Source of the DNA: Pyrinomonadaceae bacterium
GTDB lineage: Bacteria > Acidobacteriota > Blastocatellia > Pyrinomonadales > Pyrinomonadaceae
Length of the DNA: 64,000 nt
NCBI GenBank assembly: GCA_035571655.1
Contig: DATNCH010000290.1
Span: forward strand, 541-64,540
Direction of reading: 5' to 3'
Shown here: positions 2,993-64,000 of the stretch, one piece after another
How positions within the stretch are numbered: position 1 is the stretch's first letter
Layout: every line of letters starts with the position of its first letter
Notes under the pieces: model-generated
Database searches by the model: none
The model's input: the letters and a program-made list of their open reading frames with translations, nothing else
What the model was told of the DNA's origin: nothing
Program-made: the position numbers and the translations under genes

Positions 2993-3004
2993 ATCCGCGC
3001 GCGC

Positions 3005-3029
3005 GTGCCCTTTTGTGCCTTTTTGTGGC
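3005..3029. repeat. Family-A palindromic element, right arm (possible degenerate left arm at 2974..2988)
   Basis: GTGCCCTTTTGTGCCTTTTTGTGGC. Confidence 0.7.
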
Positions 3030-4360: not shown

Positions 4361-4394
4361 AAGAAATAGGTCCGATAGGTCCTGTTCAAAAGTC

Positions 4395-5120: not shown

Positions 5121-5121
5121 C

Positions 5122-5313
5122 ATGAACTGGCCAGATCTATCGATGAGCGGCTACGGCTTCTACGTTTGGGGCTCATACATTTTTTCACTCGTCCTGATTG
5201 TTTGGGAAGTGGTGAGTTTAAAACAGCGCAAGAAAGCGCTCACGCAACAGCAATCATCCAATACTGTTCCTGCGTCTGTTTTGAGAGGTAGTGCTAATGA
5301 AACGACGTCATAA
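5122..5313 (+). CDS. ccmD: Small haem exporter protein CcmD
   Basis: MNWPDLSMSGYGFYVWGSYIFSLVLIVWEV, a single-TM small protein between ccmC and ccmE. Start chosen at the internal Met. Confidence 0.6.
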   Translation: MNWPDLSMSGYGFYVWGSYIFSLVLIVWEVVSLKQRKKALTQQQSSNTVPASVLRGSANETTS

Positions 5314-5755
5314 ACGTGTGGCATTCATTGTAGTGGGACTGGCAGGATTAGCAGTCGCCGCTTATTTGGTTGCTAGCGCGTTTCGCAATAACCTGGTCTT
5401 CTTTTTCAGTCCGACTCAGGTGGCGGCAAAGGAAGCGCCGGTCAATCGAACCTTTCGTATCGGTGGGTTGGTGCAGGAGGGCACACTGCAACGCGACAAC
5501 GACGGTTTGACAGTCCGATTTACCGTTACCGACACGGCTGCAAATATTCCGGTGGTGTACAAGGGGATACTTCCGGATCTGTTTAAAGAAGGTCGTGGCT
5601 GTGTCGCGCAGGGAAAGCTCGCGTCTGACGGCGTGTTTCACGCAGACCAGGTGCTGGCGAAGCACGATGAGAACTACATGCCTCCGCAAGCCGGCGACGC
5701 GATCGACAAAGCGAAGCATGCACAGGAAGCCGCGCAAACAGTGGTAGATAATTAG
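5291..5755 (+). CDS. ccmE: Haem chaperone CcmE
   Basis: N-terminal TM anchor, an OB-fold-like body and the haem-binding motif LAKHDENYMPP. Confidence 0.9.
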   Translation: MLMKRRHKRVAFIVVGLAGLAVAAYLVASAFRNNLVFFFSPTQVAAKEAPVNRTFRIGGLVQEGTLQRDNDGLTVRFTVTDTAANIPVVYKGILPDLFKEGRGCVAQGKLASDGVFHADQVLAKHDENYMPPQAGDAIDKAKHAQEAAQTVVDN

Positions 5756-5756
5756 G

Positions 5757-5823
5757 GCCACAAAAAGCACATAAAGCATACAAAATGGTTTTTACTTTTG
5801 TTCCTTTTGTGCTTCTTTGTGGC
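5757..5823. repeat. Family-A palindromic element (complete)
   Basis: GCCACAAAAAGCACATAAAGCA...TTGTTCCTTTTGTGCTTCTTTGTGGC, between ccmE and ccmF. Confidence 0.85.
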
Positions 5824-5837
5824 AGGTTATTAGATCA

Positions 5838-7856
5838 ATGATTCCAGAAATTGGGCAATTCTCATTAACGATCGCGCTGCTCCTGGCTCTGACTCAGGCG
5901 ACTCTGCCGCTCATCGGCGCGTCGCGTGGCAATCGCGTCTGGATGGCGCTCGCCGTCCCTACCGGCCAGGCGCAGTTCATCTTTGTTACGATCGCGTTTG
6001 GCTGTCTCGCCTACTCGTTCATCACGAATGACTTTTCAGTTCTGAACGTCGCGATCAATTCCAATTCACAACTGCCGTTGCATTACCGGCTCGCCGCAAC
6101 CTGGGGTTCTCACGAAGGCTCTTTGCTTTTGTGGACGTTGATGCTCGCACTGTGGACGGCCGCCGTGTCGCTCTTCAGCCGTCACTTGCCGGAAGAGATG
6201 GTCGCGCGCGTGCTCAGCGTGATGGGAATCGTGAGCGTGGGCTTCCTGTCGTTCATGCTGCTCACCTCCAATCCTTTCACGCGCCAGTTCCCTGTTCCGG
6301 CGGATGGCCGCGACCTCAATCCACTGCTCCAGGATCCGGGAATGGTCGCACATCCGCCAATGCTCTACATGGGCTACGTCGGTTTCTCAGTCGCGTTTGC
6401 TTTTGCGATTGCGGCGCTCATCGGCGGACGGCTTGATGCAACGTGGGCGCGTTGGTCCAGACCCTGGACCACCATCGCATGGATGTTTTTGACGTGCGGC
6501 ATCGCGCTTGGAAGTTTCTGGGCATACTACGAACTCGGATGGGGCGGCTGGTGGTTCTGGGATCCGGTCGAAAACGCATCCTTCATGCCCTGGCTCGTCG
6601 GCACCGCCTTGATACATTCGCTCGCCGTCACCGAAAAGCGTGGCGGCTTCAAAAGCTGGACAGTGTTGCTCGCGATCGCCGCTTTTTCGTTGAGCCTGCT
6701 CGGAACGTTTCTCGTTCGCTCGGGTGTGCTGACGTCCGTTCACGCGTTCGCGTCAGATCCGAAGCGAGGCATTTTTATTCTTGCGTTTCTGGTGCTCGTT
6801 ATCGGCGGCTCGTTGCTGCTCTACGCCTGGCGCGCGAAACAAGTCGGGCTGGGCGGCAAGTTTGAAGTCGTGTCGCGCGAATCGCTGCTGCTCTCGAACA
6901 ACGTTTTGTTGACCGTCGCCGCCGGGTCCGTTCTTCTCGGAACACTCTACCCACTGATCGTCGATGCATTGGGTATGGGCAAACTGTCCGTTGGTCCACC
7001 TTACTTCAACCTCGTATTCGTGCCGCTGATGGCGCCGGCCATGTTCCTGATGGGCATTGGACCACTCGCGCGCTGGAAGAAAGCGAGTCTTCCGGATCTC
7101 GTGACGAGATTGCGCTGGGCGTTTGTGATCAGCGTCGTGAGCGCGCTGGCGCTTCCGTTCGTCTTCGGCCAGTTTAAGGCGCTCGTGAGTTTGGGTTTGA
7201 TGTTGGCCATCTGGATCGTCACGACTGTTTTGGTGAACCTTTGGGAACGAGTTCGCGTGACTTCGGGACAACTCTCGACATTCCAGAAACTGCGGATGCA
7301 GAGCCGCAGCTACTACGGGATGCAGGTAGCACACGTCGGCGTCGCGGTGTTCATACTCGGCATAACGATCGTGACCGGGTATCAATTGGAGCAGGACGTG
7401 CGAATGAAACCCGGCGACACGGTTAACGCCGGCGGCTACGAATTCAAGTTCAACGGTACGACCGAGATCAATGGTCCAAACTACGTGGCGGCGCGCGCGG
7501 AAGTCGTCGTCAGTCGCAACGGGGCCGAGATCGAGCGGATGTATCCCGAGAAGCGTAACTACAACGCCAGCGGCAATGTGATGACCGAGACAGCGATCGA
7601 CACTGGAATCTTTCGCCACCTGTACATCTCGCTCGGCGAGCGTGTGAGCGGAGGTGCGTGGAGTGTGCGCGTGTATTACAAGCCACTCGTCGGATGGATC
7701 TGGGGTGGCGCACTGCTGATGGCGATTGGCGGCGGTCTCGCGGTTTCCGATCGACGATACGCTCTGGCAGCGCGGAAAGAACGTGAGGCACGCGAGACGG
7801 TTAAAACGGTCGAAGTACCGACGACCGTTGTGGCTTCGGTGCAACAGGAATCTTAA
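5838..7856 (+). CDS. ccmF: Cytochrome c haem lyase subunit CcmF
   Basis: Large polytopic protein with the WWD motif WGGWWFWDPVENAS. Start moved to ATG 5838 (MIPEIGQ...) because 5817 lies inside a palindromic repeat. Confidence 0.9.
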   Translation: MIPEIGQFSLTIALLLALTQATLPLIGASRGNRVWMALAVPTGQAQFIFVTIAFGCLAYSFITNDFSVLNVAINSNSQLPLHYRLAATWGSHEGSLLLWTLMLALWTAAVSLFSRHLPEEMVARVLSVMGIVSVGFLSFMLLTSNPFTRQFPVPADGRDLNPLLQDPGMVAHPPMLYMGYVGFSVAFAFAIAALIGGRLDATWARWSRPWTTIAWMFLTCGIALGSFWAYYELGWGGWWFWDPVENASFMPWLVGTALIHSLAVTEKRGGFKSWTVLLAIAAFSLSLLGTFLVRSGVLTSVHAFASDPKRGIFILAFLVLVIGGSLLLYAWRAKQVGLGGKFEVVSRESLLLSNNVLLTVAAGSVLLGTLYPLIVDALGMGKLSVGPPYFNLVFVPLMAPAMFLMGIGPLARWKKASLPDLVTRLRWAFVISVVSALALPFVFGQFKALVSLGLMLAIWIVTTVLVNLWERVRVTSGQLSTFQKLRMQSRSYYGMQVAHVGVAVFILGITIVTGYQLEQDVRMKPGDTVNAGGYEFKFNGTTEINGPNYVAARAEVVVSRNGAEIERMYPEKRNYNASGNVMTETAIDTGIFRHLYISLGERVSGGAWSVRVYYKPLVGWIWGGALLMAIGGGLAVSDRRYALAARKEREARETVKTVEVPTTVVASVQQES

Positions 7857-7862
7857 AGATCT

Positions 7863-7943
7863 TCTCTGCGGTCCTCTGCGTATCTCTGCGCTCTCTGCGT
7901 TAAAATCGAATCTAAACGCAGAGAGCGCAGAGGACCGCAGAGA
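7863..7943. repeat. Family-B palindromic element (CTCTGCG units)
   Basis: TCTCTGCGGTCCTCTGCGTATCTCTGCGCTCTCTGCG...CGCAGAGAGCGCAGAGGACCGCAGAGA, between ccmF and ccmG. Confidence 0.9.
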
Positions 7944-7954
7944 AAAGGCAATTT

Positions 7955-8482
7955 ATGTTGAAGTACTTAATTCCACTCGCTCTATTCCTCGTACTCGTTG
8001 TCTTTCTGGCAATCGGGCTGACGCGTAATCCCAACGAACTTCCGTCTGCACTGATCGACAAACCCGCGCCAACATTCCGTCTGCCGCAGTTAAAGCAACC
8101 AGACAAGACGTTCTCTGCCGAAGACATGCGCGGGAAGGTTTGGATGCTGAACGTTTGGGCGTCCTGGTGCGTCGCGTGCCGCGACGAACACCCCTTTATG
8201 TTCGAATACCAGAAGTCAGGCGCCGTTCCGATTTATGGGCTGAACTACAAAGACCGACCCGAGGACGCGCTCGGATGGCTCAGCGAGTTAGGCGATCCTT
8301 ACCTGCTGAGCGCTGTCGATCTCGACGGGCGGGTCGCGATCGACTACGGAGTCTACGGAGCGCCCGAGACTTACATCATCGACAAAAAGGGCACGATTCG
8401 ACTCAAACATGTCGGCCCCGTGATGCCCGACGTTTGGGAGAAAAAGATTCTGCCCATGGTCCAGGAATTAAACCGCCAGTGA
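7955..8482 (+). CDS. ccmG: Periplasmic thiol:disulfide oxidoreductase CcmG/DsbE
   Basis: N-terminal anchor and a thioredoxin fold with WCVAC. Confidence 0.85.
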   Translation: MLKYLIPLALFLVLVVFLAIGLTRNPNELPSALIDKPAPTFRLPQLKQPDKTFSAEDMRGKVWMLNVWASWCVACRDEHPFMFEYQKSGAVPIYGLNYKDRPEDALGWLSELGDPYLLSAVDLDGRVAIDYGVYGAPETYIIDKKGTIRLKHVGPVMPDVWEKKILPMVQELNRQ

Positions 8483-8490
8483 ACAACCAG

Positions 8491-8973
8491 ATGACTCGCT
8501 CGCGTTTGCTCGCACTTTTGTTGCTCTGCCTGCTCGCCTCCTTTGCGAGGGCGCAAGTCCAGACTGAAGAACAGCCAAGCGACGACCCCGTGATCGAGCA
8601 GCGTCTCGCAAAACTCTCGCACGAGCTTCGTTGTCTTCAGTGTCAAAATCAAACTCTCGCTGATTCGCCGTCCGATCTCGCCGCAGACTTGCGTCGCGAG
8701 ATACGCGCGCAGATGAAAGCCGGCAAGAGCGACCAGGAGATCATTGCATTTCTCACGCAGCGGTACGGGCAATTCATTCTGTATCGTCCACGCGTGACGC
8801 CGCTGACGTATCTCTTGTGGTTTGGGCCATTCGTATTATTGCTCGGCGGCCTGCTTATTCTCTTCCGCTACATCAAACAGCGACGCGATCAGATTACGGA
8901 ACAGCCGTTGACCGCCGAAGACCGGCGCCGCGCTGAAGAGATGCTTGCGTCTTCGCGAAAGGAGACGGCGTGA
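8491..8973 (+). CDS. ccmH: Cytochrome c maturation protein CcmH
   Basis: Signal peptide MTRSRLLALLLLCLLASFARAQ, the LRCLQCQNQ CXXC motif and a C-terminal TM. The ORF-track start at 8140 overlaps ccmG and was rejected. Confidence 0.85.
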   Translation: MTRSRLLALLLLCLLASFARAQVQTEEQPSDDPVIEQRLAKLSHELRCLQCQNQTLADSPSDLAADLRREIRAQMKAGKSDQEIIAFLTQRYGQFILYRPRVTPLTYLLWFGPFVLLLGGLLILFRYIKQRRDQITEQPLTAEDRRRAEEMLASSRKETA

Positions 8974-12352: not shown

Positions 12353-13001
12353 CCGCTTTAAAACGCTCAGCCACTATGCGGGTCGGCAAGCCAGTACCGG
12401 AGATCACTGGTTTGCCAAAAGAGACGTAAGGATTGATTACAACATTCTTTGGCTGATCCGTACCAGTTAGACGGATAAACGGATAGAGCCTAGCAGCCTT
12501 TCCAGAAGGATCATGTTCGACGCGGGTAAGGTAGGCCTCTAAGATTTCCTTCATTGCCAATTGCCCGCCCGCCCCTACGTTTATTAATTCGCCGTATTCT
12601 TCAACAAACAGGTCCACACCATTAGTTTGAAATTGATGTTCTGCCAACGGATGTTGAGAGTTAAACCGTTCCTGCAAGGAATCAATAGCTGTTCTAATTT
12701 TGTAAAGATTGATTAGATGTCTGCGCCGGAGACTGCTAAGCACAAACGCCTCAACTAGGTTCGTATAAGATAATAGCGGGTAATCTGGCTCAGGCAAAAA
12801 AAACACTGGTTTGAAAAACGTCCGTTTATCTCCCGTACCGTAATGCGTTCCCCTCGCCCATGCCCTTAAAGTTGGCACCGGAATCCGCAGATACGAGGCC
12901 GCATCAGTAAAACGATACGCCGGAATCTCACGCGGATCGCGCCCGCCGTAAATATCGACTTTGGGCTGGTCGCTGGGTGATAGTTGGTGGATTCTAGACA
13001 T
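12264..13001 (-). CDS. DUF433 domain protein (putative antitoxin) with a long N-terminal extension
   Basis: The C-terminal GTGLPTRIVAERFKAGDSIPQIAANYGRKEEEIDDAIRYE matches the DUF433 pattern. The N-terminus has an HTH-like segment (ASYLRIPVPTLRAWARG). Confidence 0.55.
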   Translation of the reverse strand: MSRIHQLSPSDQPKVDIYGGRDPREIPAYRFTDAASYLRIPVPTLRAWARGTHYGTGDKRTFFKPVFFLPEPDYPLLSYTNLVEAFVLSSLRRRHLINLYKIRTAIDSLQERFNSQHPLAEHQFQTNGVDLFVEEYGELINVGAGGQLAMKEILEAYLTRVEHDPSGKAARLYPFIRLTGTDQPKNVVINPYVSFGKPVISGTGLPTRIVAERFKAGDSIPQIAANYGRKEEEIDDAIRYELRIA

Positions 13002-53581: not shown

Positions 53582-54469
53582 CTACTTGACGTATTCCCAG
53601 TGCCACGGTTCGTAGAAATAAGGCCGAAAACCGAAGCGCTCGGCATTGTGGACCAGCCAACGGTAAGCGGGCGTGTTGACCTGGATCGCACGGTTCGCAT
53701 CCTTCGTGTCGACGGGACTGCCGCCGACGTAGATGTCCAACGCGCGACCCGTAAAGTGTGGACTGTTGACTGCGAGTCCCGCGCTGCCCGAATTCGGCGA
53801 CTGTCGGCGCAACTGTTCTTGATACTCGGGCGAGCGGAACGCGGAAACGATCTTCAGGTATTTGTCTGTCGATTTTAGATTGAGCGACGGATCGGCGTGC
53901 GCTGCCGCGAGCATCTGTTTGTACGCTTCATACGTGTTGCGCTCGACCTGACGGAGTTCGGTGGCACGTCCGGGATCGTAGAAGTCGGTCGCCGGCCCGA
54001 GTATCAACTGATCGGGCGTTGCGGGGGTGCGAGTCTTGAGTCGATCGCCCTGCCAATGCGAGACCAGCTTCATGAGGGAGGCTTCATCAAGCTGACCGTC
54101 TGCGCGCAGGCCCCGCTTCTTCTGCCACTTTGCGAGTATCGTAGCGAATTCGCTCGTGATCGGATCGTGAGGAGTGTCGAGGGTTTTGCCGATCAGCAGA
54201 TCGTAAAGATACCAACCACGCTGCTGTTTTCCTCCGAAGGTCCAGGTTACTTCGTTGCGAAGAATCGCGTTCTGCGCCGCTGCGGCGGCGAAGGCGCTTG
54301 AAGACGTTGTGCTAAGAGCAACGGTTCGAGCCGGTGGTTCACTTTTAGAGCGGCGCGATTGACTGCTGGTTAGACCTGTGACAGATGCGACTGTCGCAAT
54401 GACGACGAGCAAAGATATAGCCAGAAGAATATGAAGTCTGGGGTTTTTCATAATTATTACGAGATGCAA
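53582..54469 (-). CDS. D-alanyl-D-alanine carboxypeptidase-like (peptidase M15B/VanY) with a peptidoglycan-binding-like segment
   Basis: ILAKWQKKRGLRADGQLDEASL (PG_binding-like), [37 protein letters not shown]. Confidence 0.75.
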   Translation of the reverse strand: MHLVIIMKNPRLHILLAISLLVVIATVASVTGLTSSQSRRSKSEPPARTVALSTTSSSAFAAAAAQNAILRNEVTWTFGGKQQRGWYLYDLLIGKTLDTPHDPITSEFATILAKWQKKRGLRADGQLDEASLMKLVSHWQGDRLKTRTPATPDQLILGPATDFYDPGRATELRQVERNTYEAYKQMLAAAHADPSLNLKSTDKYLKIVSAFRSPEYQEQLRRQSPNSGSAGLAVNSPHFTGRALDIYVGGSPVDTKDANRAIQVNTPAYRWLVHNAERFGFRPYFYEPWHWEYVK

Positions 54470-54492
54470 CGAGGGGGCGATGGGTTCGATCG

Positions 54493-55551
54493 TTAGCGAC
54501 GACGTTTTTTAGAGGATTTCCTCTTCGGTTTTTCCTTCACTTTGGCTGGTTTCGGTGCTGCGTGATGCGCTTCTTCAGGGGGAGGAGCACCGGCCTTCTC
54601 CAGTGCCGCAGTGATCAGGTCGTCAGGCGGACGGATGCCATTAATAAAAGCGAACACATGATAGTTCGCGTTCCTCTCGCGTATTACCTCGATACGACCT
54701 TCTCTCTTCAGACGCGCGAGTTCGGTCATAACGAACGTCTGCTCTGGGCCACTCATGTATCGATAGTCGATGTCGAATGCGAGGCCCGTTGAATGCGGCG
54801 GACTGTCGATCAGCACCGCGTTTCTGTTCACGCGCCGCAACGCATGTTGATACTGTTCCGGCCTCATAAGTGAGCTCACGGGAAGCGGGCGATCAAATTG
54901 TCGATGATATGCGGCAGCTACTTCTTCCAGGATCTTGAACGCTTCAGGTCGCACCGAACTCAACATATTGATTTTCAACGCCTGGCGATCTGATGGGTTG
55001 TATAGGTCATAGGAACGCCCGCCGAAATTCTTCGCGAGCGCCTGAAGCGCTTCGTAGTCGCGCGCGAGTTTTTGCGGGTCGTGCGCATCGCTTTGTTGCG
55101 GGTCGGTGCTTTCATCATCGTCTTCGAACCTCGAGAACTCAGCGTCGTCTGCTCTCTGACCGATGCCGAAGAGGACGTATGAGTCAGTGACAAACGGGAC
55201 AGAAATCACTTCGCCACGTTGAATCATCGAGGCGAGATCGAGAAAGTCCTGGCAAGTATGAACGTTGTATTTATCAATCTCCGCGACCTGTGTGGCCAGA
55301 AACCAGTAACGCTCGCTGTAGTGTTTGAGCTCAGGCGGAGTTTCAGCACCTCCTGTCTCGGTTCGTGCCTCTTTGACCTTCTCGGCCGCACGCACCCACG
55401 CATCCGCACTCGACGAATTCATAAACGTCGAGTTGGTGGTTACCGATTGAATGAGGCGAGTCCGCCTAAAATCCGTAAACCGCACCAGCGCCCACACACC
55501 CGCGCACGCCACCGCACAAAAAAGAAACAGCAGCAAGATCCTCTTCCGCAT
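54493..55551 (-). CDS. Hypothetical protein, possibly M15-like (DUF5715-type)
   Basis: N-terminal TM. PPHSTGLAFDIDYRYM resembles the H-x6-D zinc site of M15 peptidases. Basic C-terminal tail. Confidence 0.4.
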   Translation of the reverse strand: MRKRILLLFLFCAVACAGVWALVRFTDFRRTRLIQSVTTNSTFMNSSSADAWVRAAEKVKEARTETGGAETPPELKHYSERYWFLATQVAEIDKYNVHTCQDFLDLASMIQRGEVISVPFVTDSYVLFGIGQRADDAEFSRFEDDDESTDPQQSDAHDPQKLARDYEALQALAKNFGGRSYDLYNPSDRQALKINMLSSVRPEAFKILEEVAAAYHRQFDRPLPVSSLMRPEQYQHALRRVNRNAVLIDSPPHSTGLAFDIDYRYMSGPEQTFVMTELARLKREGRIEVIRERNANYHVFAFINGIRPPDDLITAALEKAGAPPPEEAHHAAPKPAKVKEKPKRKSSKKRRR

Positions 55552-55597: not shown

Positions 55598-56257
55598 TTA
55601 TACCGTATTCAAAAAGCCGATCGCGAGGAAGTAGAGGCCGAGGTCGTAGAGACCGAGGGTGTCGAGACTGTTCGCCGGATCGCCCGAGACTTTGCTGCCG
55701 AGCCCGATCGACAAATCCGACATGAACCACAAGGAGCTGCCGAGAAAGATTGGAATCGTCGCCGTCGAGGCGAAGATGTTTGAAATGATCAGCATCGAGA
55801 AGTACGAGACTTCGAGGATGCGTTCGCTTCCCTTCATCATCGGAAACACCCAGCGCAGAACGAAAAGCGCGATGACGACATTAGTGATCGCCAGAGGCAT
55901 TAACGGGCGGCCGGGTAACTGTCGTTGATAACTCAAAATAATGACGCACACCAACGCCAGCGCAAACGCCACGGCGCCAATCTGAAATCCATGCGGCGCT
56001 TTGCGTTCTGGAAGATCGAGAAAGATGTCGCCAATCGCACACAACAGGAAAGCAAGCGCGACGAGTCGTTGGTCCAGGTAAAACGAGAGCCCCGAAAGCA
56101 GCAGCGCCGGTGCTGCTTTGATCACTGCTCGCAATAAATAAGGCAACGGCGTTGACGTTTTGTCCTTCCTGAGTTGGGTGAACACGGCAAGGACGACGAG
56201 CGCAAAGTACACGATCGTCAATCCGGCAGAACCTCTCAGCAGCCAATCGAATGTCAT
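55598..56257 (-). CDS. YhhN-family (lysoplasmalogenase-like) membrane protein
   Basis: 219 aa with about 7 TM segments. LLCAIGDIFLD resembles the YhhN signature. Confidence 0.5.
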   Translation of the reverse strand: MTFDWLLRGSAGLTIVYFALVVLAVFTQLRKDKTSTPLPYLLRAVIKAAPALLLSGLSFYLDQRLVALAFLLCAIGDIFLDLPERKAPHGFQIGAVAFALALVCVIILSYQRQLPGRPLMPLAITNVVIALFVLRWVFPMMKGSERILEVSYFSMLIISNIFASTATIPIFLGSSLWFMSDLSIGLGSKVSGDPANSLDTLGLYDLGLYFLAIGFLNTV

Positions 56258-56278: not shown

Positions 56279-58750
56279 CTAAAACGTTTTCAAAAACTCA
56301 ATGAGCGCGCGTTTGTCGTCATCGCTCAGACCAGGCTCCTGCTCAAACTTATCCGTACCGAAATAATGTCCCCGATTCACGATCAGATCCGGGCACTTAC
56401 TGAATTTCAGCATTGGACCAACCAGCGGACGCAACGCATCCTTCGCTTGCTCGTCCGTCGCGCCCTGCGGCAAATTTTTGAGCGCATGTTTCATGTCCAA
56501 CAAGAGTTGCAAGATGTCGGCATCTCGCTTCGCCCTGTCAACCAACCCCGACGTCGGTGCCAACAAATCGAGATTTGAAAGCAGGCTTACGGGTGTGCCT
56601 TTCGGTAATGGTCCGATCTCGATACCTTCGTCGCTAAAGATTGCCGGAAAGTATTTTGACAGGAACCCGCCCGACCCTTGTAGAAAATCCGGAAGGAAGC
56701 CGGCGCCGACGCGCAGATAACTCTGTTGCGTGGTGCGATCGATCCGGCCCGGTATCTTGTCGCCGAGCACCTCGTCCTTATCACGCTTCTCCGGCCAAAG
56801 CATCTGCTCGATCGAGTTCTGAAACGACCTCATTCTCGCTTCGACGGAAGGGCTCGATTCAAACTGCCCGACGGAGTTGTTCAGCAGATATGGAGCAGTG
56901 GACCATAGGCTGATCAGCGAAGGCGGACGCGTGTAACCACGACCACCCGCAGGCATCATGTACTGGCGTGGCTCACCGGTTATCGGATCGTACCAGGTTA
57001 TGTTGCCCACCGACGGCAGGTCTTTGTACGACTGCGACGAGAAGTTGTCCCAAATGTTGTTGCCGATTGCATTCGTAGCCAGCGGGCTGCACGCGTTTGT
57101 TTGCAGCAGCGTCACGGGAATGCGCAACTCAGTCGAGAGGTAATTGTCTTTCAGAAAATCGTCAGCCAGAACAATCTGCCGCATCTTCTGTTTGAAGTCT
57201 TCGGTCTTGGTCCACTCCCAGTATTTGTTGAAGCAGGTCAGGTAATCTTTGCCGTTACAGCCGCGCACATCGTCGAGGCCAGGCGCGGGCGTCGGAATCT
57301 TGCTCGAGTGGCAGCGCGCACAACGCTCAGCAAAAACTGTCTTGCCACGCGTTAACTGTTCCGGACTTGCGGTGAGATAGCCACTGCCGCCCGGAGCGTC
57401 TTTTAGATAGTGGGGATCGGTGGTCTTAAGAAAAAATTGCGCCACGTTGAAGGTCTGATTTTCGGTAGCGGCAAAGTAACTAGAGTTGTTGCGTGCGTCC
57501 GAGATCTTTATCGGCGAGATCTCTTTCCCGCCAACCAGCGCATTAAAGTGCAGTAACCATTCCTCGCTGAACGTACCGATGTTTATGTAAACACGATTCA
57601 GCGCACCCATCACGCCGACCGAATCGGAGCCGTCTTTGAGAACGCGCGGAGTGTAGACCGTGTCCGGCGCCTGATAGAACTTAGTCAGTGGTCCATCTTT
57701 TACGTAGTCGTTGAGTTGCCGGTTGTCTTTACCTCCGCCCGCAAGCGTTTCCTTGCCCCAGCGGTCGGCCATCATGATGCGCGGTCCCAGGAGATACATC
57801 GCGTTCATCGTGCGCGGATTGTTGATGTTGTCAGTCGAGACGAGAGAAGTGTCGAGAGTTCCCGGACGCGAAGTGTGAAAGAGTTGGAAGACGAAGTTGC
57901 TCGGATCCGCTTCCCAGTAAAAGATTCGATCGATCCAAAAATACTGTGCGCCGACGTTGGAGCTCAGGTTTTCCCACTTCGGGTTCTCCGGATCGGCGGG
58001 TGGTTTTACCGGATTTGGTCCAACATGACAGAACCCGCACGACATACCGACTCGATACGGGCGAACCAGCTCTTTCGAATAATAATACTGGGAATCCGTG
58101 TAGTACTTCTCCGCGTCCCAGCGCGCTTTTGCTGCTTCGTCGAAGTCGGGATTCGGAAAGAGACGCAAGCCGACAATGCCCGTTTCATACCCGTAGTAGG
58201 AACCGGCAGGCACAGTCGTTCCGCGAGCGCCGTATCTCACGCCGGGATACTTTTGTTCGTTTTCGAATGGATCGGGTGGACAATCCGCGCGGCGCTTGTC
58301 GAGCCAAAGACCGAAACGTTCCGGATCTGGACCAGTTGGTTTTTCGAAGCAAGGCGAGTTGACGAGACCGAAATACTCCCAACGATTGTCGCGACTGTAT
58401 TTCGTCAGTTTCGGATGAGACGAGAGTATCTTCAGGAAATCGAGAGCGCCCGCACTCTTGTTGACCAACTTGTCCCAAAGCCTGTCGTTGCCGGCGGTCC
58501 AGACGATCCACGTGTTGCGCCCTTTGATCTCGTCGGGCGTCAACTGAACGCCGCCGTCCATATCGTGAAAGAAGTCTTCGTCCGCTGCCGGAAAGCTCGC
58601 CGGAAGACGGTTTGCGAGGCGCGCTTCGTCGAGCACTTCGCCGGCTTTTGGTTCATGGCCTTTGATTCGTTTGTAGATGACTGCGCCGGCGGCAATCACG
58701 GCGAGGATGATAACGAGAATGATCAGAAAAGGGCGCGACTTGAGAGACAT
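56279..58750 (-). CDS. Membrane-anchored 823-aa protein with two CXXCH haem-c motifs
   Basis: N-terminal TM RPFLIILVIILAVIAAGAVIY. Has CGFCHVGPNP and CARCHSSKIP. I cannot name a family. Confidence 0.6.
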   Translation of the reverse strand: MSLKSRPFLIILVIILAVIAAGAVIYKRIKGHEPKAGEVLDEARLANRLPASFPAADEDFFHDMDGGVQLTPDEIKGRNTWIVWTAGNDRLWDKLVNKSAGALDFLKILSSHPKLTKYSRDNRWEYFGLVNSPCFEKPTGPDPERFGLWLDKRRADCPPDPFENEQKYPGVRYGARGTTVPAGSYYGYETGIVGLRLFPNPDFDEAAKARWDAEKYYTDSQYYYSKELVRPYRVGMSCGFCHVGPNPVKPPADPENPKWENLSSNVGAQYFWIDRIFYWEADPSNFVFQLFHTSRPGTLDTSLVSTDNINNPRTMNAMYLLGPRIMMADRWGKETLAGGGKDNRQLNDYVKDGPLTKFYQAPDTVYTPRVLKDGSDSVGVMGALNRVYINIGTFSEEWLLHFNALVGGKEISPIKISDARNNSSYFAATENQTFNVAQFFLKTTDPHYLKDAPGGSGYLTASPEQLTRGKTVFAERCARCHSSKIPTPAPGLDDVRGCNGKDYLTCFNKYWEWTKTEDFKQKMRQIVLADDFLKDNYLSTELRIPVTLLQTNACSPLATNAIGNNIWDNFSSQSYKDLPSVGNITWYDPITGEPRQYMMPAGGRGYTRPPSLISLWSTAPYLLNNSVGQFESSPSVEARMRSFQNSIEQMLWPEKRDKDEVLGDKIPGRIDRTTQQSYLRVGAGFLPDFLQGSGGFLSKYFPAIFSDEGIEIGPLPKGTPVSLLSNLDLLAPTSGLVDRAKRDADILQLLLDMKHALKNLPQGATDEQAKDALRPLVGPMLKFSKCPDLIVNRGHYFGTDKFEQEPGLSDDDKRALIEFLKTF

Positions 58751-58768
58751 CGTTTACCTCCAAATGGG

Positions 58769-58796
58769 GCCACAAAAAGGCACAAAAGCACAAAAG
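58769..58796. repeat. Family-A half element
   Basis: GCCACAAAAAGGCACAAAAGCACAAAAG, between the DyP stop and the start of the 823-aa gene. Confidence 0.75.
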
Positions 58797-58798
58797 AG

Positions 58799-60298
58799 TT
58801 ATGAACCGACGGTCGCAAAGTATTTCAAAGCTCTGAGACTCGGAAGGAAGAAATAGGCGCCGCCACGCACGGTCACAAACTGCGGCAGATGGTCACGTCG
58901 CTCTCGCAGTGCGTTGTCACGCGGTTGTGAGAACGTGTCTGAAACCGGACAGCCCTGAACGGCTTCGCGGTTACCGAGCAACGGATCGCTCTCTTCACTT
59001 AGACCATCGAACTTCGTCGTATTCATCCACGCGCCCTGCACAAACTCGAACTGCCGGGCGATGTTGGCGTTAAGACAAATGAACTGGAGTCCGCGCTCCT
59101 CTTCATTCGGCGGCTCGGGTTTCAGAGCATCTTCCGGTGATAAACCTGGACCATACTCACGGCCTCTGCGCAGCAAACGGTGAAAACGAGTCGCCGACAT
59201 CAGATCGTCACGCAGGCCTTTGTGACCCAATCCAAGCGTTTGAAGCAAGTGAGAGATCGGTCCCTTCACACGGTTTGGAAAATCTGCGTTGCGCGGGTTC
59301 GCGCGACGCGCGTGGGCTCCGAGCGGACAACGAACGCCGGCAGGATCGGTGTCGTAAAGAAACTGATTGTATGCGCGATCGTTATCATCTTTGCCGACGC
59401 CGTCGATCGGCTTGTTCTGTAACGGTATCAGCGGCGTGCCGTTCAAACGTCGACCCAACATCGCTTCGGCCACATGTGTTCGCTGTTCGGGATTTGAATT
59501 CGCGGCGTGGTCCATGTATCGCCAGAACTCGCGCACGTGCTGCTCGAGTTGGCGAATGACGAGGTAAGTGCCGTTGCGTCCCAGATCTTTTTTGAATGGC
59601 TGGTCCAACGCCGGCAGCAGGTCGGCAGCGCCGCGACTCGACGGATCCAACAACGGGCGATCCGTGTATAGGTTGTACTCGTTTGAGTAGCCGAGCAGAA
59701 ACTCACCCAACGACACCACGTTGCTGTACACAAGCTGATCGCCGGAGGGCTTTCGCTTCTCTTCCCAGTCGACAACCGGCTGGCTGAGTCCATCCCTGAA
59801 GCCAAAAGGCTCGACGTCGTCAAGGTCGCTCGTCGTCAGACGCTCGAGCACTTCGAACGCAACGTCCCAGGACGGACCTTTAAACTGCGCTTCGCACTGC
59901 GCCATCTGACCTTCCTTGCCGTACATCATGATCGCCAGGTGCGGTATGCGATCGGGTCCACCCCAACGCCAAAGGCTTGGATCATTTGGTCCAATGTCGC
60001 CCAGGCGGCGCGAACGGTTCTTCTCGGCCATGCCGAGCAAGAACTCGGGCGAAAATCCATCGATGACTTCACGCGGGACGCCGAGCTTCTCGAGTCCGTC
60101 GACCGTGAAGCCGATTTGCAGGGCTGTCGATGGTGGAGGATCCAACGTGCGTGCAGTAGTCACGTGTGCGGCCAGCAACCACGCTCGTGCCGCAGCGAGG
60201 TCTTTTATACACACGAGGTAGAAGCACGCCTGTCGCATGCTGCCAAAACCAAAGCGCGCCAGTCCTTGAACGTCATCGAAATCGAGCTGCTGCATCAT
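58799..60298 (-). CDS. Dye-decolorizing (DyP-type) peroxidase, long form
   Basis: GXXDG motif FGFRDGLSQPVVDW, proximal-His region GAHARRANPR, plus LLRRGREYG and QFEFVQGAW. No signal peptide. Confidence 0.8.
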   Translation of the reverse strand: MMQQLDFDDVQGLARFGFGSMRQACFYLVCIKDLAAARAWLLAAHVTTARTLDPPPSTALQIGFTVDGLEKLGVPREVIDGFSPEFLLGMAEKNRSRRLGDIGPNDPSLWRWGGPDRIPHLAIMMYGKEGQMAQCEAQFKGPSWDVAFEVLERLTTSDLDDVEPFGFRDGLSQPVVDWEEKRKPSGDQLVYSNVVSLGEFLLGYSNEYNLYTDRPLLDPSSRGAADLLPALDQPFKKDLGRNGTYLVIRQLEQHVREFWRYMDHAANSNPEQRTHVAEAMLGRRLNGTPLIPLQNKPIDGVGKDDNDRAYNQFLYDTDPAGVRCPLGAHARRANPRNADFPNRVKGPISHLLQTLGLGHKGLRDDLMSATRFHRLLRRGREYGPGLSPEDALKPEPPNEEERGLQFICLNANIARQFEFVQGAWMNTTKFDGLSEESDPLLGNREAVQGCPVSDTFSQPRDNALRERRDHLPQFVTVRGGAYFFLPSLRALKYFATVGS

Positions 60299-60308
60299 TG
60301 AAGTTCAT

Positions 60309-60354
60309 CTTTGCGCCTTTGCGAGGAAAACCGTCTCCTCGCCAAGGCGCAAAG
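60309..60354. other. Strong intercistronic hairpin (19-bp stem with 1 mismatch, 8-nt loop)
   Basis: CTTTGCGCCTTTGCGAGGA aaaccgtc TCCTCGCCAAGGCGCAAAG, between the 434-aa gene stop and the DyP start. No T-tract on the coding (minus) strand. Confidence 0.7.
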
Positions 60355-60367
60355 GTGCAAAGTTAAG

Positions 60368-61672
60368 TCATATCAGTGCGAGCCACTGTGCGGCTTCCGC
60401 ATTTGTCATCGACTGTTGGTCGATTCCGTTTCGGATTTGCGAGTTTCTGAACAGGTCGAAGTTGGTGAGACCGCGATGGCCGTTGTACCAGACTTCAGTC
60501 GGTAGTTGGTGACGCCGAATGTAATACTTAAACTGCTGCTCGTTCTTCGCGCCTTTGGAGAACAGCCAATTCGTTTGCGGGTAACCGATTCCGTTACTGA
60601 AAACGACGTTCAGTCCAAATGCGACTTTGTTGATGAAGTCGTCCATGTAACTTTCGAGACTGCCGTCGTAGTTGCTGCAAAATACGAGTCGCTTCTTGTC
60701 GTCGATGTAGACCCAGCGCGCGAAATGGATCGACGGCACGCGCGCGAGATAGCGGCGCGTGTAGACGTGACGCGTTGTGTATTCAATAAGCCACAACAGA
60801 CTGATGAACAACCAGCGGCGGAACAATCCAGGTTTCACACTTCCCATTGCGGTGAATTGATTTGTGACGTCATGGTCCTCGATTTCTGCGAGCCGATGCA
60901 CATGCTCGGCCGAAGGGCGAGGTGCGATCACCGGATCACGCTTCTCGCGACGGCGCAACTGAATCAAAAAGATCGGCAGGTAAAGCAGAAACCACGGCGC
61001 CAGGATCAGCAGCAGCACGGGAATAAAAATGAGGTTCAACAGATTCCTGATGCGCCATCCCAACGGAGCTTTCCTGAGTGATGTCAACGTCAGCCGGCGC
61101 ATGTTTACTTCCTGGCGCACAAACGCCTGGGCAGCGCGACGGATTTCCTCGGGCGAGCCTTGTTGAAATACAGACCCATTCTCAAACATCTGTTTCTGCA
61201 ACACCTGACACAACGTGTTCTCTTCACGAATCTGCTGCATGCTGCGACCAACCCAATTCACGTACATCGTCGCCGGCCGTTGCTCGTGCTGCTTCATCCA
61301 ACGGATCAGGTCCGTTCCCGGAGTAAAGTCAACACAGTACGAAAAGATCCGCTTCAAACCTTCGCCCGCAACGGCGACCATCTGCCGGCGAAAGTCGTCG
61401 CCGTCGCCGTCAAAATCGCCAAGAAACGTCAGGTACGTTGGAAAGTTCTGGCGTGGTAGACCATACGCGACGGTGATGTCGTCGAGCGTCAGATCTTCAA
61501 GGATCAAAATACGCGCAAAGTGCAGTTCTTCGAGCCGTCCGAAAGGAATGATCTCGTTATCGGGGTTCACCGTTCCGGGCGCACGGTTCATTGTCGCGAG
61601 TAAACTGCGCAACTCGTCCGTGCGATTGACGTCGAGCGGTGCGACCACCATGAAACTCGATTGAGGCGTCAT
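60368..61672 (-). CDS. DyP-related protein split by a central double-TM hairpin
   Basis: The N-terminal half has ...IPFGRLEELHFARILIL.... The centre has LLNLIFIPVLLLILAPWFLLYLPIFLI. The C-terminal half has IHFARWVYIDDKKRLVFCSNYDGSLESYMDDFINKV. I see no GXXDG or proximal-His motif. Confidence 0.5.
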   Translation of the reverse strand: MTPQSSFMVVAPLDVNRTDELRSLLATMNRAPGTVNPDNEIIPFGRLEELHFARILILEDLTLDDITVAYGLPRQNFPTYLTFLGDFDGDGDDFRRQMVAVAGEGLKRIFSYCVDFTPGTDLIRWMKQHEQRPATMYVNWVGRSMQQIREENTLCQVLQKQMFENGSVFQQGSPEEIRRAAQAFVRQEVNMRRLTLTSLRKAPLGWRIRNLLNLIFIPVLLLILAPWFLLYLPIFLIQLRRREKRDPVIAPRPSAEHVHRLAEIEDHDVTNQFTAMGSVKPGLFRRWLFISLLWLIEYTTRHVYTRRYLARVPSIHFARWVYIDDKKRLVFCSNYDGSLESYMDDFINKVAFGLNVVFSNGIGYPQTNWLFSKGAKNEQQFKYYIRRHQLPTEVWYNGHRGLTNFDLFRNSQIRNGIDQQSMTNAEAAQWLALI

Positions 61673-61704
61673 ATCGGTATGTAAATTGTGAAGACTTCAG
61701 TCGC

Positions 61705-62148
61705 TTACTGGCTCGGCGGAAACTCCAGAGAGAAATGGATCAGCGGTTTCTCGCCCCAGTAAACGCGTCCCAGATAGAAATTGGGATCGATAAGCCGGAT
61801 CTCATCGCGAATCCATCGCGCGACTAATGAGGTGTCTGAATAGTCGAGCACGATGCACTCTTTGTTGTCGAACCAGCTTGGTCCCTTATAAACCTTGGCG
61901 ATGATCGCGTTGAATCCGAAATGAGTAATACGGTTTCTGAGAACGCCAGCCTGCGCGTCGAATGTCTTTCCCTGCCAGGCAAAGAAGTTGACGAAGTGAG
62001 CGATTTCATCACTGAACTTTGTACCGTTCGCGATGATGGCGGTGCCTTTCGCCTGGCCGTTGGGAATGTCTCCGACAGTGCCGTTACTGAAGAGTTCGTC
62101 AAGTTGGGTGTCAGTCAGGTTGAGTAGTTCCTCAACTGTGTGAGCCAT
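61705..62148 (-). CDS. Hypothetical 147-aa protein (weak GXWXG/DUF4334-like resemblance)
   Basis: aaggagg RBS; FFAWQGKTFD...LGRVYWGEKPLIHFSLE. The assignment is weak. Confidence 0.45.
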   Translation of the reverse strand: MAHTVEELLNLTDTQLDELFSNGTVGDIPNGQAKGTAIIANGTKFSDEIAHFVNFFAWQGKTFDAQAGVLRNRITHFGFNAIIAKVYKGPSWFDNKECIVLDYSDTSLVARWIRDEIRLIDPNFYLGRVYWGEKPLIHFSLEFPPSQ

Positions 62149-62175
62149 ATGAGTTCCTCCTTAAATTGTTGTTAT

Positions 62176-62195
62176 GCCACAAAAAGGCACAAAAG
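62176..62195. repeat. Family-A half element
   Basis: GCCACAAAAAGGCACAAAAG, between the GMC stop and the start of the 147-aa gene. Confidence 0.7.
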
Positions 62196-62216
62196 AGTAC
62201 ATATATTATTATGTGT

Positions 62217-64000
62217 TTAAGCGCCCATTTCGTTTCGCAGAATTACTTCCGCGGCTTTTTCGCCGATCATGTAGATGGCGCTGACGATAAAGAATCCGGG
62301 AATACGCGGAAACACCGACGCATCCACGACGCGGAGTCCTTGTGTGCCGTGAACGCGGAAGTTGCTATCGAGCACGCCGTTTTGTTCGCGCGGGCCGATG
62401 GCACAGGTGCAGGACGCGTGATGGCCCCAGCAGTTCGTGCGGACGAATGTTTTTAATTGTTCGTCGGTCTGAAGCTCACAGCCTGGAATTTCTTCGGTCT
62501 CAATCAATTCTTCCTGCCGAAGCTTGGCTGTCAGTCCGCGCACAAACTGAACTCCTTCAACCACGGCGTCCAGATCCTCTTCGCCACCTTCCTCGAAGTA
62601 GTGAAAGTTGATGTCGGGCGTGTCGAGTGGATTTGCGGAGCGCAGCGTGACGCAACCTTTTCGGTTTCTCGTGTGCGCCTTGAGTATGACCCACGTCAGA
62701 TAGTTAAGACCGCGTGGAAACAGACCGGAATACCCCGGGAAGTATCCTTTGAAGTTCGCCAGCAGGGCCATGCAAAACAGATCGGGAAGACCGTCGGCGG
62801 TTTTTGAACGATTGAATAGCGTGAGGACGGCGCCGTTGGTTGCGTAGACGCCACAGCGTTTCGCCAACCATTCCTGGTACTGCGGATCCGTCGTGTCGAA
62901 CTTTACGTCTTTGAACAGTTGCCAATCGTCTTTCATGCGATTGACGACTGCGACCTCATATCGATCCTGTAGATTCCGACCGACTCCCGGCAGCTCGACT
63001 CGCACGGGAATGTCGTTCTTTTCGAGAACATCGCGAGGGCCAATGCCTGACAGCATCAGCAGTTGCGGCGTGTTGAAAGCACCACCAGCGAGAATCACTT
63101 CGCGCGATGCATGCGCGCGGCGCAAATCGCCAGGCGTGTCGCTGGGTCGCGCGTGTGCTCGATAGAGTCGTTCGCCTTTGAGGTATTCAACTCCGATCGC
63201 GCGGTTCTGATCGTCAAAGAGCACCTTCGTCGCTAATGCGTTGAGTTCGATGCGCAGATGATCGGGATACTTGCACGCAATCTCCAGCACGCGTTCGCGC
63301 GTGCCCGTACGCGAATGATGGCTGGTGGTGAGCGGCGCGTAACGCATGCCGATCGAGTTGTTCTTCACCAGCCGCCAGTCATTAGGATCCAGCTTCCCTT
63401 CTAAAAACCAGCGTATGCGCTTCAACTTCTCGCCGATGTCTTTAAATGCTTCGTGCCCGGAGTCGAGCATTACGCGCTTCAGCGTGCGATTGCGGAGCGC
63501 CGACACCGGTATCGCCTTTTCGGTGCGCAGCCATCCTTTCCAACCGTGACGCGTCGGATTGATTCCGATCTTCGAGAGCAAACGCTGAAACGGCCGGTGA
63601 TGACAGTTCTCGATGCGCTCGAAGTAAGTGCGCATGTTTTCCGACTTCCAACTCGCGTCGCCGGTGAGATCGGCAATGTAGTCCCAGTCGGCGTTGTGCG
63701 GGTAAATCAGGATCATCGCGTTATGGGCCGTGCAACCGCCGAGTGTTCCGGCGCGTGGATACAACACTCCGTCGACGCGTCGCCCATCGTATTCCGCGTA
63801 ATACTTTTTATCCTGTTCTTGTAACTGATCGTCAGCGTAGTGACGCACGAAGAAGTCCCACTTCATCGCGTTGTTTTCCGAAGCGAATGCATGAAACGCA
63901 GGCACGTCGTAGTCGCACGGTATGCGGCCCTCGGCTGATACAGCGTGGCTTGCGTTCTCCTTCGGATCGCTACCGGCCTCGAGCAATAAGACTTTGCGGC
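62217..64000 (-). CDS. GMC-family FAD oxidoreductase, N-terminus cut by the window edge
   Basis: ...KVLLLEAGS at the edge (after the unseen GxGxxG), GGCTAHNAMI, and C-terminal HHASCTCAIGP...VLDSNFRVHGTQGLRVVDASVFPRIPG. The reading frame stays open to position 64000. Confidence 0.85.
   Translation of the reverse strand, partial: RKVLLLEAGSDPKENASHAVSAEGRIPCDYDVPAFHAFASENNAMKWDFFVRHYADDQLQEQDKKYYAEYDGRRVDGVLYPRAGTLGGCTAHNAMILIYPHNADWDYIADLTGDASWKSENMRTYFERIENCHHRPFQRLLSKIGINPTRHGWKGWLRTEKAIPVSALRNRTLKRVMLDSGHEAFKDIGEKLKRIRWFLEGKLDPNDWRLVKNNSIGMRYAPLTTSHHSRTGTRERVLEIACKYPDHLRIELNALATKVLFDDQNRAIGVEYLKGERLYRAHARPSDTPGDLRRAHASREVILAGGAFNTPQLLMLSGIGPRDVLEKNDIPVRVELPGVGRNLQDRYEVAVVNRMKDDWQLFKDVKFDTTDPQYQEWLAKRCGVYATNGAVLTLFNRSKTADGLPDLFCMALLANFKGYFPGYSGLFPRGLNYLTWVILKAHTRNRKGCVTLRSANPLDTPDINFHYFEEGGEEDLDAVVEGVQFVRGLTAKLRQEELIETEEIPGCELQTDEQLKTFVRTNCWGHHASCTCAIGPREQNGVLDSNFRVHGTQGLRVVDASVFPRIPGFFIVSAIYMIGEKAAEVILRNEMGA

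Follow-up and report, generated by a model that had tools for sequence, protein, structure and literature searches.

What does a bacterium achieve with a flavoenzyme, a haem peroxidase and a membrane-anchored cytochrome that are encoded side by side? The question is raised by a locus in a 64,000-nucleotide (nt) stretch of a contig from a Pyrinomonadaceae bacterium (DATNCH010000290.1, positions 541 to 64,540, assembly GCA_035571655.1), which we call the window. Six consecutive genes on its minus strand encode, in this order, a GMC oxidoreductase that uses flavin adenine dinucleotide (FAD), the unannotated proteins p147 and p434, a DyP-type haem peroxidase, the di-haem cytochrome c823 and a YhhN-family membrane protein. 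The original prediction placed the GMC and DyP enzymes at the centre, as a pair that produces and consumes H2O2. We propose instead, with somewhat less than even confidence, that the locus oxygenates and processes an unsaturated membrane lipid (a fatty acyl chain or an isoprenoid) and is not an H2O2 relay from oxidase to peroxidase.

The coordinates of all six open reading frames (ORFs) were checked. The GMC frame (62217..64000, minus strand, as for all six) is open to the last base of the window, so that 593 3' codons lie inside and about 33 N-terminal residues outside; the full length in contigs of the same species is 626 amino acids (aa). It is followed by the ORF of p147, a soluble protein of 147 aa from an unannotated family (61705..62148); by p434, a 434-aa tandem ferredoxin-like (dimeric alpha+beta barrel) protein according to its ORF and an AlphaFold2 model (60368..61672); by the 499-aa DyP, identified by PDB and TIGR01413 matches (58799..60298); by c823, an 823-aa membrane-anchored di-haem c-type cytochrome according to its CXXCH motifs and profile matches (56279..58750); and by the 219-aa YhhN protein (55598..56257), an integral membrane protein with several hydrophobic segments that matches Pfam YhhN (PF07947) at an E-value of 4e-16. 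The gaps between them are 68 nt (GMC/p147), 32 nt (p147/p434), 69 nt (p434/DyP), 48 nt (DyP/c823) and 21 nt (c823/YhhN), in agreement with the five packed genes and the closely following YhhN gene of the original prediction. Because each of the six has hundreds to thousands of conserved homologues, they are real genes rather than chance ORFs. Identical public proteins for all cluster genes are named 'hypothetical'. A promoter and terminator scan of limited power found no terminator-like hairpins in the five gaps, and nothing above chance with a sigma-70 consensus, which may not suit Acidobacteria. The six genes make up the downstream part of a conserved locus of about 10 kb, for which contigs of the same species give the whole order: p391, a 391-aa protein discussed below, is transcribed divergently from an alpha/beta-hydrolase gene, which lies 8 nt upstream of GMC and is followed by GMC, p147, p434, DyP, c823 and YhhN.

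The cluster genes stay together far outside the source genome, in soil bacteria from several phyla. A lack of such co-occurrence, which the original prediction had named as a refutation, is thus not observed. Relatives of c823 that are 63-82% identical across lineages were found in at least 585 species genomes, from Acidobacteriota, Nitrospira, Geobacter, Sorangium, Chromobacterium, Rokubacteria, Methylomirabilales and Alpha-, Beta- and Gammaproteobacteria. We counted homologues of the neighbours within 10-kb flanks of c823 relatives in 83 loci from at least six phyla or classes; these loci are the basis of all the counts given here. GMC is present in 66/83 loci, often directly adjacent to c823, p147 in 38, p434 and DyP in 30 each, and the possibly catalase-related p391 in 27. 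Less frequent are a patatin-like phospholipase (13/83), YhhN (five loci, namely four named Pyrinomonadaceae and one metagenome-assembled genome from Acidobacteriota) and an animal-type haem peroxidase (four loci). The gene order varies by lineage, being collinear as here, split into two divergent operons or headed by c823, while the gene set is kept; this argues for functional coupling and against mere inherited synteny. YhhN is a lineage-specific neighbour.

By these counts, the conserved core is something other than the GMC-DyP pair. In most loci the partner of c823 is GMC, DyP is found in only 30, and the constant partner of DyP is p434, with which it always co-occurs as a pair. The locus is thus a composite of two independently occurring modules, c823+GMC and p434+DyP. 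Relatives of p434 that are 31-33% identical also lie 1-3 nt upstream of DyP genes in contexts that contain neither c823 nor GMC (L089, 1618-4267, and L090, 8001-10685, in our numbering of loci). In five family representatives (P0330, P0366, P0367, P0295 and P0372), p434 is fused N-terminally to DyP as a single polypeptide. The p434-DyP pair is an independent module, and p434 is its dedicated DyP partner. As for the surroundings of the two distant pairs, one has CsbD, OmpA and FGE-sulfatase genes, and the other has transglutaminase and LytTR genes.

The peroxidase itself is genuine as judged from its sequence, and is close to the C- and D-type DyPs. It matches solved DyP structures over both halves, with E-values from 2e-42 to 1e-13, including a Deinococcus DyP (8re3, E-value 2e-42), DyP2 (4g2c) and an ancestral D-type enzyme (7anv); PMC10820274 describes the Deinococcus radiodurans DyP and mentions the 8re3 entry. 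The match to TIGR01413 has an E-value of 1e-21 and a score of 77 bits, against a curated cut-off of 100.5. The GXXDG motif (FGFRDG, residues 165-170, 59789..59806, minus strand) aligns to that of 8re3, and its catalytic Asp169 is invariant in 26 orthologues, as are His329 of the proximal-His motif GAHARRANPR (residues 327-336, 59291..59320, minus strand; GSHIRRMNPR in 8re3) and the arginines of HRLLRRG. The whole set of catalytic residues is thus kept.

The partner p434 belongs to a family of 2435 clusters at 50% identity, for which neither sequence nor profile searches gave a match in Pfam, NCBIfam or PDB. An AlphaFold2 model based on 58 diverse sequences has a mean predicted local distance difference test (pLDDT) score of 94 and consists of two ferredoxin-like alpha+beta domains that are packed together and connected by a long hydrophobic helix (residues 204-245). 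The best solved-structure matches of this model are tandem proteins of the ABM/SchA-like type, namely WhiE-ORFI (9lmn, E-value 6e-5, probability 1.0) and Abx(+)O (9ltx), followed by sulfur oxygenase reductase and 'putative monooxygenases'. Both domains carry an 'HFAR' motif on the equivalent strand, and we therefore consider p434 an internal duplication: LHFARI (residues 50-55, 61508..61525, minus strand) lies on model strand 50-58 with His51 invariant in the alignment, and IHFARW (residues 315-320, 60713..60730, minus strand) lies on model strand 315-323 with His316 nearly invariant.

The label 'DyP-related', which p434 carried in the original prediction, is not supported by sequence. As a candidate paralogue of DyP, p434 was rejected: BLASTP returned nothing, hhalign against the DyP family gave a probability of 0.5%, and the PDB profile search was negative. 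Nor does the structure search list a DyP in its 50 matches. The two proteins have in common only the broad fold class of two ferredoxin-like domains.

The same prediction assigned p434 a central transmembrane hairpin. What remains of this is a conserved hydrophobic segment (residues 210-239, 60956..61045, minus strand), which is hydrophobic in 58/58 aligned family members and peaks at 2.64 on the Kyte-Doolittle scale; it forms one uncharged, proline-containing stretch of 30 residues and does not divide into two canonical spans. Because it is too short for two such spans and the domains are packed together in the model, we interpret it as a putative monotopic, hairpin or re-entrant membrane anchor.

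The other module is centred on GMC and c823. GMC matches Pfam GMC_oxred_N (PF00732, E-value 1.3e-20) and GMC_oxred_C (PF05199, E-value 3.7e-30), both above the cut-offs. Its full-length relatives begin directly at the FAD-binding sequence YIVVGSGAGGG, with GxGxxG present and no export signal. A 'WGHHASCTC' stretch is present, in which the conserved active-site His near the C-terminus may lie, and the second catalytic position is not obvious. Among solved structures, the closest relatives reach E-values of only about 1e-41, and their substrates (chloramphenicol, choline, alcohols and fatty acids) are unrelated; these relatives include oxidases. There are two GMC subtypes. One is 60-80% identical to the window gene and stands directly before p147 in the loci inspected, and the other is 42-50% identical, stands directly after c823 and goes without p147. 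In a Methylomirabilales locus (L003, 13042-14703), the public gene calls missed a GMC gene that immediately follows the c823 homologue; after it comes the gene of a 958-aa animal-type haem peroxidase.

p147 has a mean column identity of 73% in its family alignment and sits between GMC and c823 in five inspected loci that lack DyP (L057, L061, L063, L079 and L082); it is the constant downstream partner of the window-type GMC subtype. Among the three proteins that had been left without an assignment, p434 now has a confidently modelled fold and c823 a remote placement, whereas p147 gave no match in Pfam, NCBIfam or PDB sequences. A GXWXG/DUF4334-type identity for p147, suggested by its motifs, was rejected, as it found no Pfam support even at an E-value of 1 and no PDB match.

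The two CXXCH motifs that had been noticed in c823 are confirmed: CGFCH (residues 238-242, 58025..58039) and CARCH (residues 477-481, 57308..57322; both on the minus strand) are 239 residues apart and invariant in the 34-sequence alignment, whose column identity is 73% over the whole length. A hydrophobic N-terminal anchor (residues 8-26, 58673..58729, minus strand) has a Kyte-Doolittle peak of 3.12. The second haem motif falls in a Pfam Cytochrom_C match (residues 467-523), and sequence and profile searches of PDB gave only generic cytochrome c matches around this haem. Weaker matches point to the CCP/MauG/RoxA/FadCcp superfamily. The NCBIfam di-haem CCP model NF040606 is matched at an E-value of 8e-9 and 35 bits against a cut-off of 150, and the RoxC and RoxA-like_Cyt-c models at about 0.007. 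In addition, the c823 profile aligns over 138 columns between the haem sites with a RoxA-like family encoded in neighbouring positions (hhalign probability 83%, E-value 9e-6), whose members h508, h491 and p976 match the RoxA structure 4b2n at a profile E-value of 6e-22.

Two further segments of c823 have counterparts in these RoxA-like proteins. APYLLNNSVG (residues 619-628, 56867..56896, minus strand) corresponds to their PYLHNGSVP and is a degenerate form of the 'MauG motif', with a nearly invariant Leu at the canonical His position. The invariant VNRGHYFG near the C-terminus (residues 791-798, 56357..56380, minus strand) opens a tail, 'VNRGHYFGT...LIEFLKTF', that aligns by eye with the RoxA-like 'GNGGH..GTDL...LLEYLKTF', and its His795 may serve the second haem as distal ligand. 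Altogether, the comparison supports c823 as a distinct, divergent family of the superfamily that has lost the motif His, the relationship being one at superfamily level only.

On which side of the membrane do these proteins act? The haem domain of a c-type cytochrome has to be periplasmic for maturation by the System I ccm machinery, and a complete ccmABCEFGH set lies in the same window, as originally predicted: the genes at 2943-8973 on the plus strand encode an ABC ATPase (presumably CcmA), CcmB, CcmC, CcmE, CcmF, a Redoxin-family protein (presumably CcmG) and CcmH. The predicted haem domain of c823 must thus face the periplasm. No signal peptides were found in GMC, p147, DyP, p391 or p434, and GMC and DyP are predicted to be cytoplasmic. 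An exception is found in Nitrospira (L037, about 12490-12570, and L076, about 12600-12680), where the GMC beside the c823 homologue has a twin-arginine (Tat) signal and a lipobox (MKPISRRTFLKLAAATGMVLSVSGCS). The lack of export signals in GMC, p147, DyP and p434 is shown, as are the genes present, the families to which they belong, the division into two modules and the conservation. Since GMC and DyP are without export signals and c823 is periplasmic, an extracellular oxidase-peroxidase chemistry is disfavoured, and the fungal lignin or dye analogy of the original prediction is a poor fit for GMC, p147, DyP and p434, none of which has a signal peptide. The arrangement suggests that the substrate lives in the membrane or crosses it.

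This bears directly on the idea that the GMC enzyme, as an oxidase, feeds H2O2 to DyP (and perhaps to c823) for the oxidation of aromatic polymers or dyes, as a bacterial counterpart of the fungal toolkit. Many GMC enzymes are H2O2-producing oxidases, and the presence of oxidases among the solved relatives, the intact catalytic triad of DyP and the co-location of GMC and DyP in 30/83 loci from several phyla are all in line with it. The predicted cytoplasmic location of both enzymes, however, rules out an attack on extracellular polymers. Moreover, DyP is missing from more than half of the GMC-c823 loci and keeps p434 as its constant partner even where there is no GMC, and the genes found nearby otherwise encode lipases and hydroperoxide-type haem enzymes, not aromatic catabolism. 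We consider this explanation improbable.

The strength of the GMC-c823 pairing raises a different alternative, in which GMC would act as a dehydrogenase and c823 as the membrane-anchored cytochrome subunit that receives its electrons, while p147 would be a small subunit and DyP/p434 an add-on. Three-subunit GMC-cytochrome enzymes whose small subunit bears a Tat signal are established (PMC12542777, Collimonas). Such a flavocytochrome would account for the most conserved pairing of the locus (66/83, often directly adjacent) and for the retention of p147 with GMC where DyP is absent, and in Nitrospira the Tat signal and lipobox put GMC and c823 on one side of the membrane. In all the other lineages that were checked, however, GMC is free of signals, while p147 has neither a twin-arginine motif nor a hydrophobic N-terminus and is absent from about half of the loci. 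c823 carries two haems rather than three, and with 823 aa, 73% column identity throughout and membership in the catalytic CCP/RoxA superfamily, it is more than an electron carrier needs to be. We therefore regard a flavocytochrome dehydrogenase as unlikely.

The neighbours of the two modules point to the substrate. Besides the alpha/beta-hydrolase, Acidobacteria, Chromobacterium, Tahibacter, a betaproteobacterium and Rhizobium have a patatin gene within the cluster or next to it; another complete acidobacterial version of the cluster has a convergent patatin gene. In Rhizobium johnstonii 3841, a genetically tractable host, a tight operon on pRL11 (L088, 4023-16375, RL_RS32240-32270) contains a 929-aa homologue of c823 that is 45% identical, in the order Old Yellow Enzyme (OYE, an NADH:flavin oxidoreductase), RoxA-like di-haem protein, 143-aa membrane protein, a second RoxA-like di-haem protein, c823 homologue, GMC and patatin. 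Because the recurrent neighbours are patatin lipases, p391, animal-type haem peroxidases, the alpha/beta-hydrolase and further RoxA-like cytochromes, they suggest an unsaturated lipid substrate. OYE, the alpha/beta-hydrolase and a membrane protein of Tahibacter labelled 'SOI' are rare across the counted loci and carry little weight. The last of these is a 139-aa protein encoded between GMC and patatin in Tahibacter amnicola (L002, 14784-15203), whose precomputed label is PF26512 'SOI'; the label was not reproduced with the local Pfam, and the other 82 loci gave no homologue.

p391 deserves separate mention. Its family of roughly 390-410 aa proteins has more than 4000 relatives among the scored candidates, all of them unannotated, and no Pfam model (e.g., L001, 5556-6731, and L084, 5844-7070). 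The sole PDB match of the p391 profile is a coral catalase-related allene oxide synthase (E-value 0.004). By inspection, the invariant R-x3-Y-x4-R-x-R of p391 has the spacing of the catalase proximal-Tyr motif, and an Asn stands at the position of the catalase distal His. Only one of 23 members touches Pfam Catalase (E-value 0.15), and a large protein search with the p391 profile retrieved close unannotated relatives only and no link to annotated catalases. A relationship of p391 to catalases is suggestive only.

The pathway that follows is inferred throughout, from its substrate to each of the reactions and their sequence. The lipases (patatin, the alpha/beta-hydrolase and perhaps YhhN) would free or present the lipid substrate. 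On the outer face, the first haem of c823 would be the site at which a C=C bond is oxygenated or cleaved with O2 or peroxide, by analogy with the Pseudomonas aeruginosa enzymes PA2077 and PA2078 and with RoxA. The resulting hydroperoxides might be converted on the inner face by DyP/p434 and the possibly catalase-related p391, with the hydrophobic segment of p434 holding the cytoplasmic DyP at the membrane, and GMC with p147 would oxidise the resulting alcohol to a carbonyl. More broadly, and with clear doubt, we see here a possible widespread bacterial oxylipin-like system for membrane or scavenged unsaturated lipids, in which c823 would represent a new family of di-haem oxygenases with a dedicated GMC, joined in many soil bacteria by a DyP that p434 would tether to the inner membrane face, a new way of using such peroxidases.

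Several observations weigh against this lipid pathway. Lipase neighbours occur in a minority of loci only, and the link between p391 and catalase is marginal, since the E-value of 0.004 is accompanied by an hhalign probability of 8% (E-value 0.004) against a catalase sequence. None of the enzymes encoded here has a close homologue that has been characterised; for GMC, the nearest solved structures are the distant ones with unrelated substrates noted above. The Tat/lipoprotein GMC of Nitrospira fits a direct GMC-c823 contact better than a pathway split by the membrane. As for c823, the MauG-motif His is replaced by Leu, the NCBIfam score is under its cut-off, and the AlphaFold2 model is poor (pLDDT 55), being built from 34 sequences that are all at least 68% identical; a structure search with it gave nothing significant, and MauG matches at E-values of about 2 are not counted as evidence. 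Finally, many genomes have c823 and GMC only, and a few have c823 alone. The assignment of function draws on context and remote homology, while the conservation is striking.

The lipase neighbours and the membrane tethering fit equally well with the repair of lipid-peroxide damage, a stress defence rather than the making or breakdown of oxylipins, in which patatin or the hydrolase would excise oxidised acyl chains and DyP/p434, p391 and c823 would reduce hydroperoxides on both faces of the membrane. True peroxidases occur within the c823 superfamily, the locus has several peroxide-handling haem proteins, and fragments of AhpC/Redoxin genes lie upstream of an isolated c823 homologue (L092). Repair leaves no role, however, for the partner that is most constant, the GMC alcohol oxidoreductase, and in the loci inspected we noted no regulator of oxidative stress. 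The TonB-type barrels that several loci have next to c823 suggest the uptake of an external substrate. We find repair quite unlikely, and the remaining probability goes to a function not yet imagined. The barrels are TonB-dependent-type outer-membrane proteins of about 1135 aa (CarboxypepD_reg + OMP_b-brl_4; e.g., L045, 11330-14734), that are encoded close to c823 in several acidobacterial loci; their ORF cluster is found in seven loci.

If the oxylipin-like system is real, p147, p434 and p391 would be three new enzyme or accessory families, and DyPs would gain a physiological role in handling lipid hydroperoxides. As a conserved, sometimes fused membrane partner, p434 is a concrete handle on the physiological role of bacterial DyP peroxidases; the p434-DyP partnership is new. 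The three partner families p147, p434 and p391 are all without a Pfam model. Members of the c823 family, which carry no annotation beyond 'hypothetical' or 'cytochrome c', share about 70% identity across Acidobacteriota, Nitrospira, Geobacter, Sorangium and Chromobacterium, a degree of constraint that suggests an important reaction. We know of di-haem-based bacterial oxylipin chemistry from essentially one Pseudomonas operon, and the present locus may be a sign that soil bacteria commonly have it, in a more elaborate form. Culturable carriers, namely Rhizobium johnstonii 3841, Chromobacterium, Geobacter hydrogenophilus, Terriglobus and Acidobacteriaceae KBS 89 and KBS 96, make these hypotheses testable.

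Other genes of the window can be described briefly. A second di-haem protein of 444 aa (485-1819, plus strand) matches Pfam DHOR, 'di-haem oxidoreductase, putative peroxidase', at an E-value of 1e-30; a rhodanese gene and the ccm cluster follow directly downstream of its gene. After YhhN on the same strand, the region 53582-55551 (minus strand) encodes a 352-aa DUF5715 protein and a 295-aa ORF, whose counterpart in same-species contigs is a 298-aa VanY-type peptidase. The trio of YhhN, DUF5715 and VanY-type genes is found beside Pyrinomonadaceae-type loci only; a link to the oxidative genes is unlikely, and the trio is probably unrelated.

How does the locus compare with known systems? Like the original prediction, which named no described pathway with this gene set, we found no description of the cluster in the literature on the gene combination, on DyP genomic context and on FadCcp/Rox relatives, the coverage of which was incomplete, so that this is absence of evidence only. 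Fungal systems that join an aryl-alcohol or glucose oxidase to a haem peroxidase also have a GMC enzyme and a peroxidase in one organism, here even in one locus. The fungal enzymes are secreted, however, whereas the GMC and DyP of the locus are predicted to be intracellular, and the conserved pairings are GMC-c823 and DyP-p434. The coral fusion of catalase-related allene oxide synthase and lipoxygenase (cAOS-LOX; 1u5u, 3dy5) resembles our proposal in that an oxygenase makes a fatty-acid hydroperoxide and a haem enzyme of the catalase fold transforms it. It differs in that no lipoxygenase is found in the locus and in that p391, which lies outside the window, is a marginal match whose distal His is not conserved. 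WhiE-ORFI and Abx(+)O share two ferredoxin-like alpha+beta domains with p434, but with TM-scores of only 0.38-0.45 and about 7% identity, and they have neither a membrane segment nor a link to DyP.

The three-subunit FAD-dependent fructose, gluconate and glucose dehydrogenases likewise have a GMC gene beside genes for a membrane-bound c-type cytochrome and a small protein. Their cytochrome is tri-haem and their small subunit bears a Tat signal, whereas c823 is di-haem and CCP/RoxA-like, p147 is Tat-less, and GMC has a signal only in Nitrospira. The Collimonas GMC enzyme is an unrelated three-subunit enzyme (PMC12542777).

The layout of c823 is collinear with those of RoxA, RoxB, RoxC and PA2077/PA2078, which belong to the same superfamily. 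The spacing between the two CXXCH motifs is 199 residues in RoxA and 245 and 235 in PA2077 and PA2078, the oleate-diol synthase (FadCcp) of P. aeruginosa (PMC4496055), and 226-233 in RoxC (PMC10837239, PMC4496055); PYxHNGSVP motifs are found in both the Rox proteins and PA2077/PA2078 (PMC10837239, PMC4496055). Unlike the Rox proteins, c823 lacks the MauG-motif His and scores against the RoxC and RoxA-like models only marginally, and its host range (Acidobacteriota, Nitrospira, Geobacter and others) is far wider than that of the rubber oxygenases. Equivalents of Phe317 and Trp302, the active-haem residues of rubber oxygenase (PMC10837239), could not be located in c823, given its low-confidence model. 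RoxC is membrane-attached and without rubber activity, and its describers speculated on unsaturated fatty acid oxidation (PMC10837239).

Of the systems described so far, the oleate-diol synthase operon of Pseudomonas, with its two di-haem enzymes, comes closest, and the RoxC group is also close. c823 and PA2077/PA2078 have in common two CXXCH motifs at similar distances (239 versus 235-245), a PY-type motif after the second haem, a His near the C-terminus and kinship with RoxA. The Pseudomonas enzymes are periplasmic and act on unsaturated fatty acids, and tandem paralogues like theirs are also found in Rhizobium and in some acidobacterial loci. In comparison with their published description, c823 is about 190 residues longer, has an N-terminal anchor rather than a cleaved signal, and has Leu in place of the motif His; the oleate-diol operon, unlike the locus, contains no GMC, DyP, p434 or p147. 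The locus described here is thus set apart by its separate c823 family, its constant GMC partner, the p434-DyP module, and p147 and p391.

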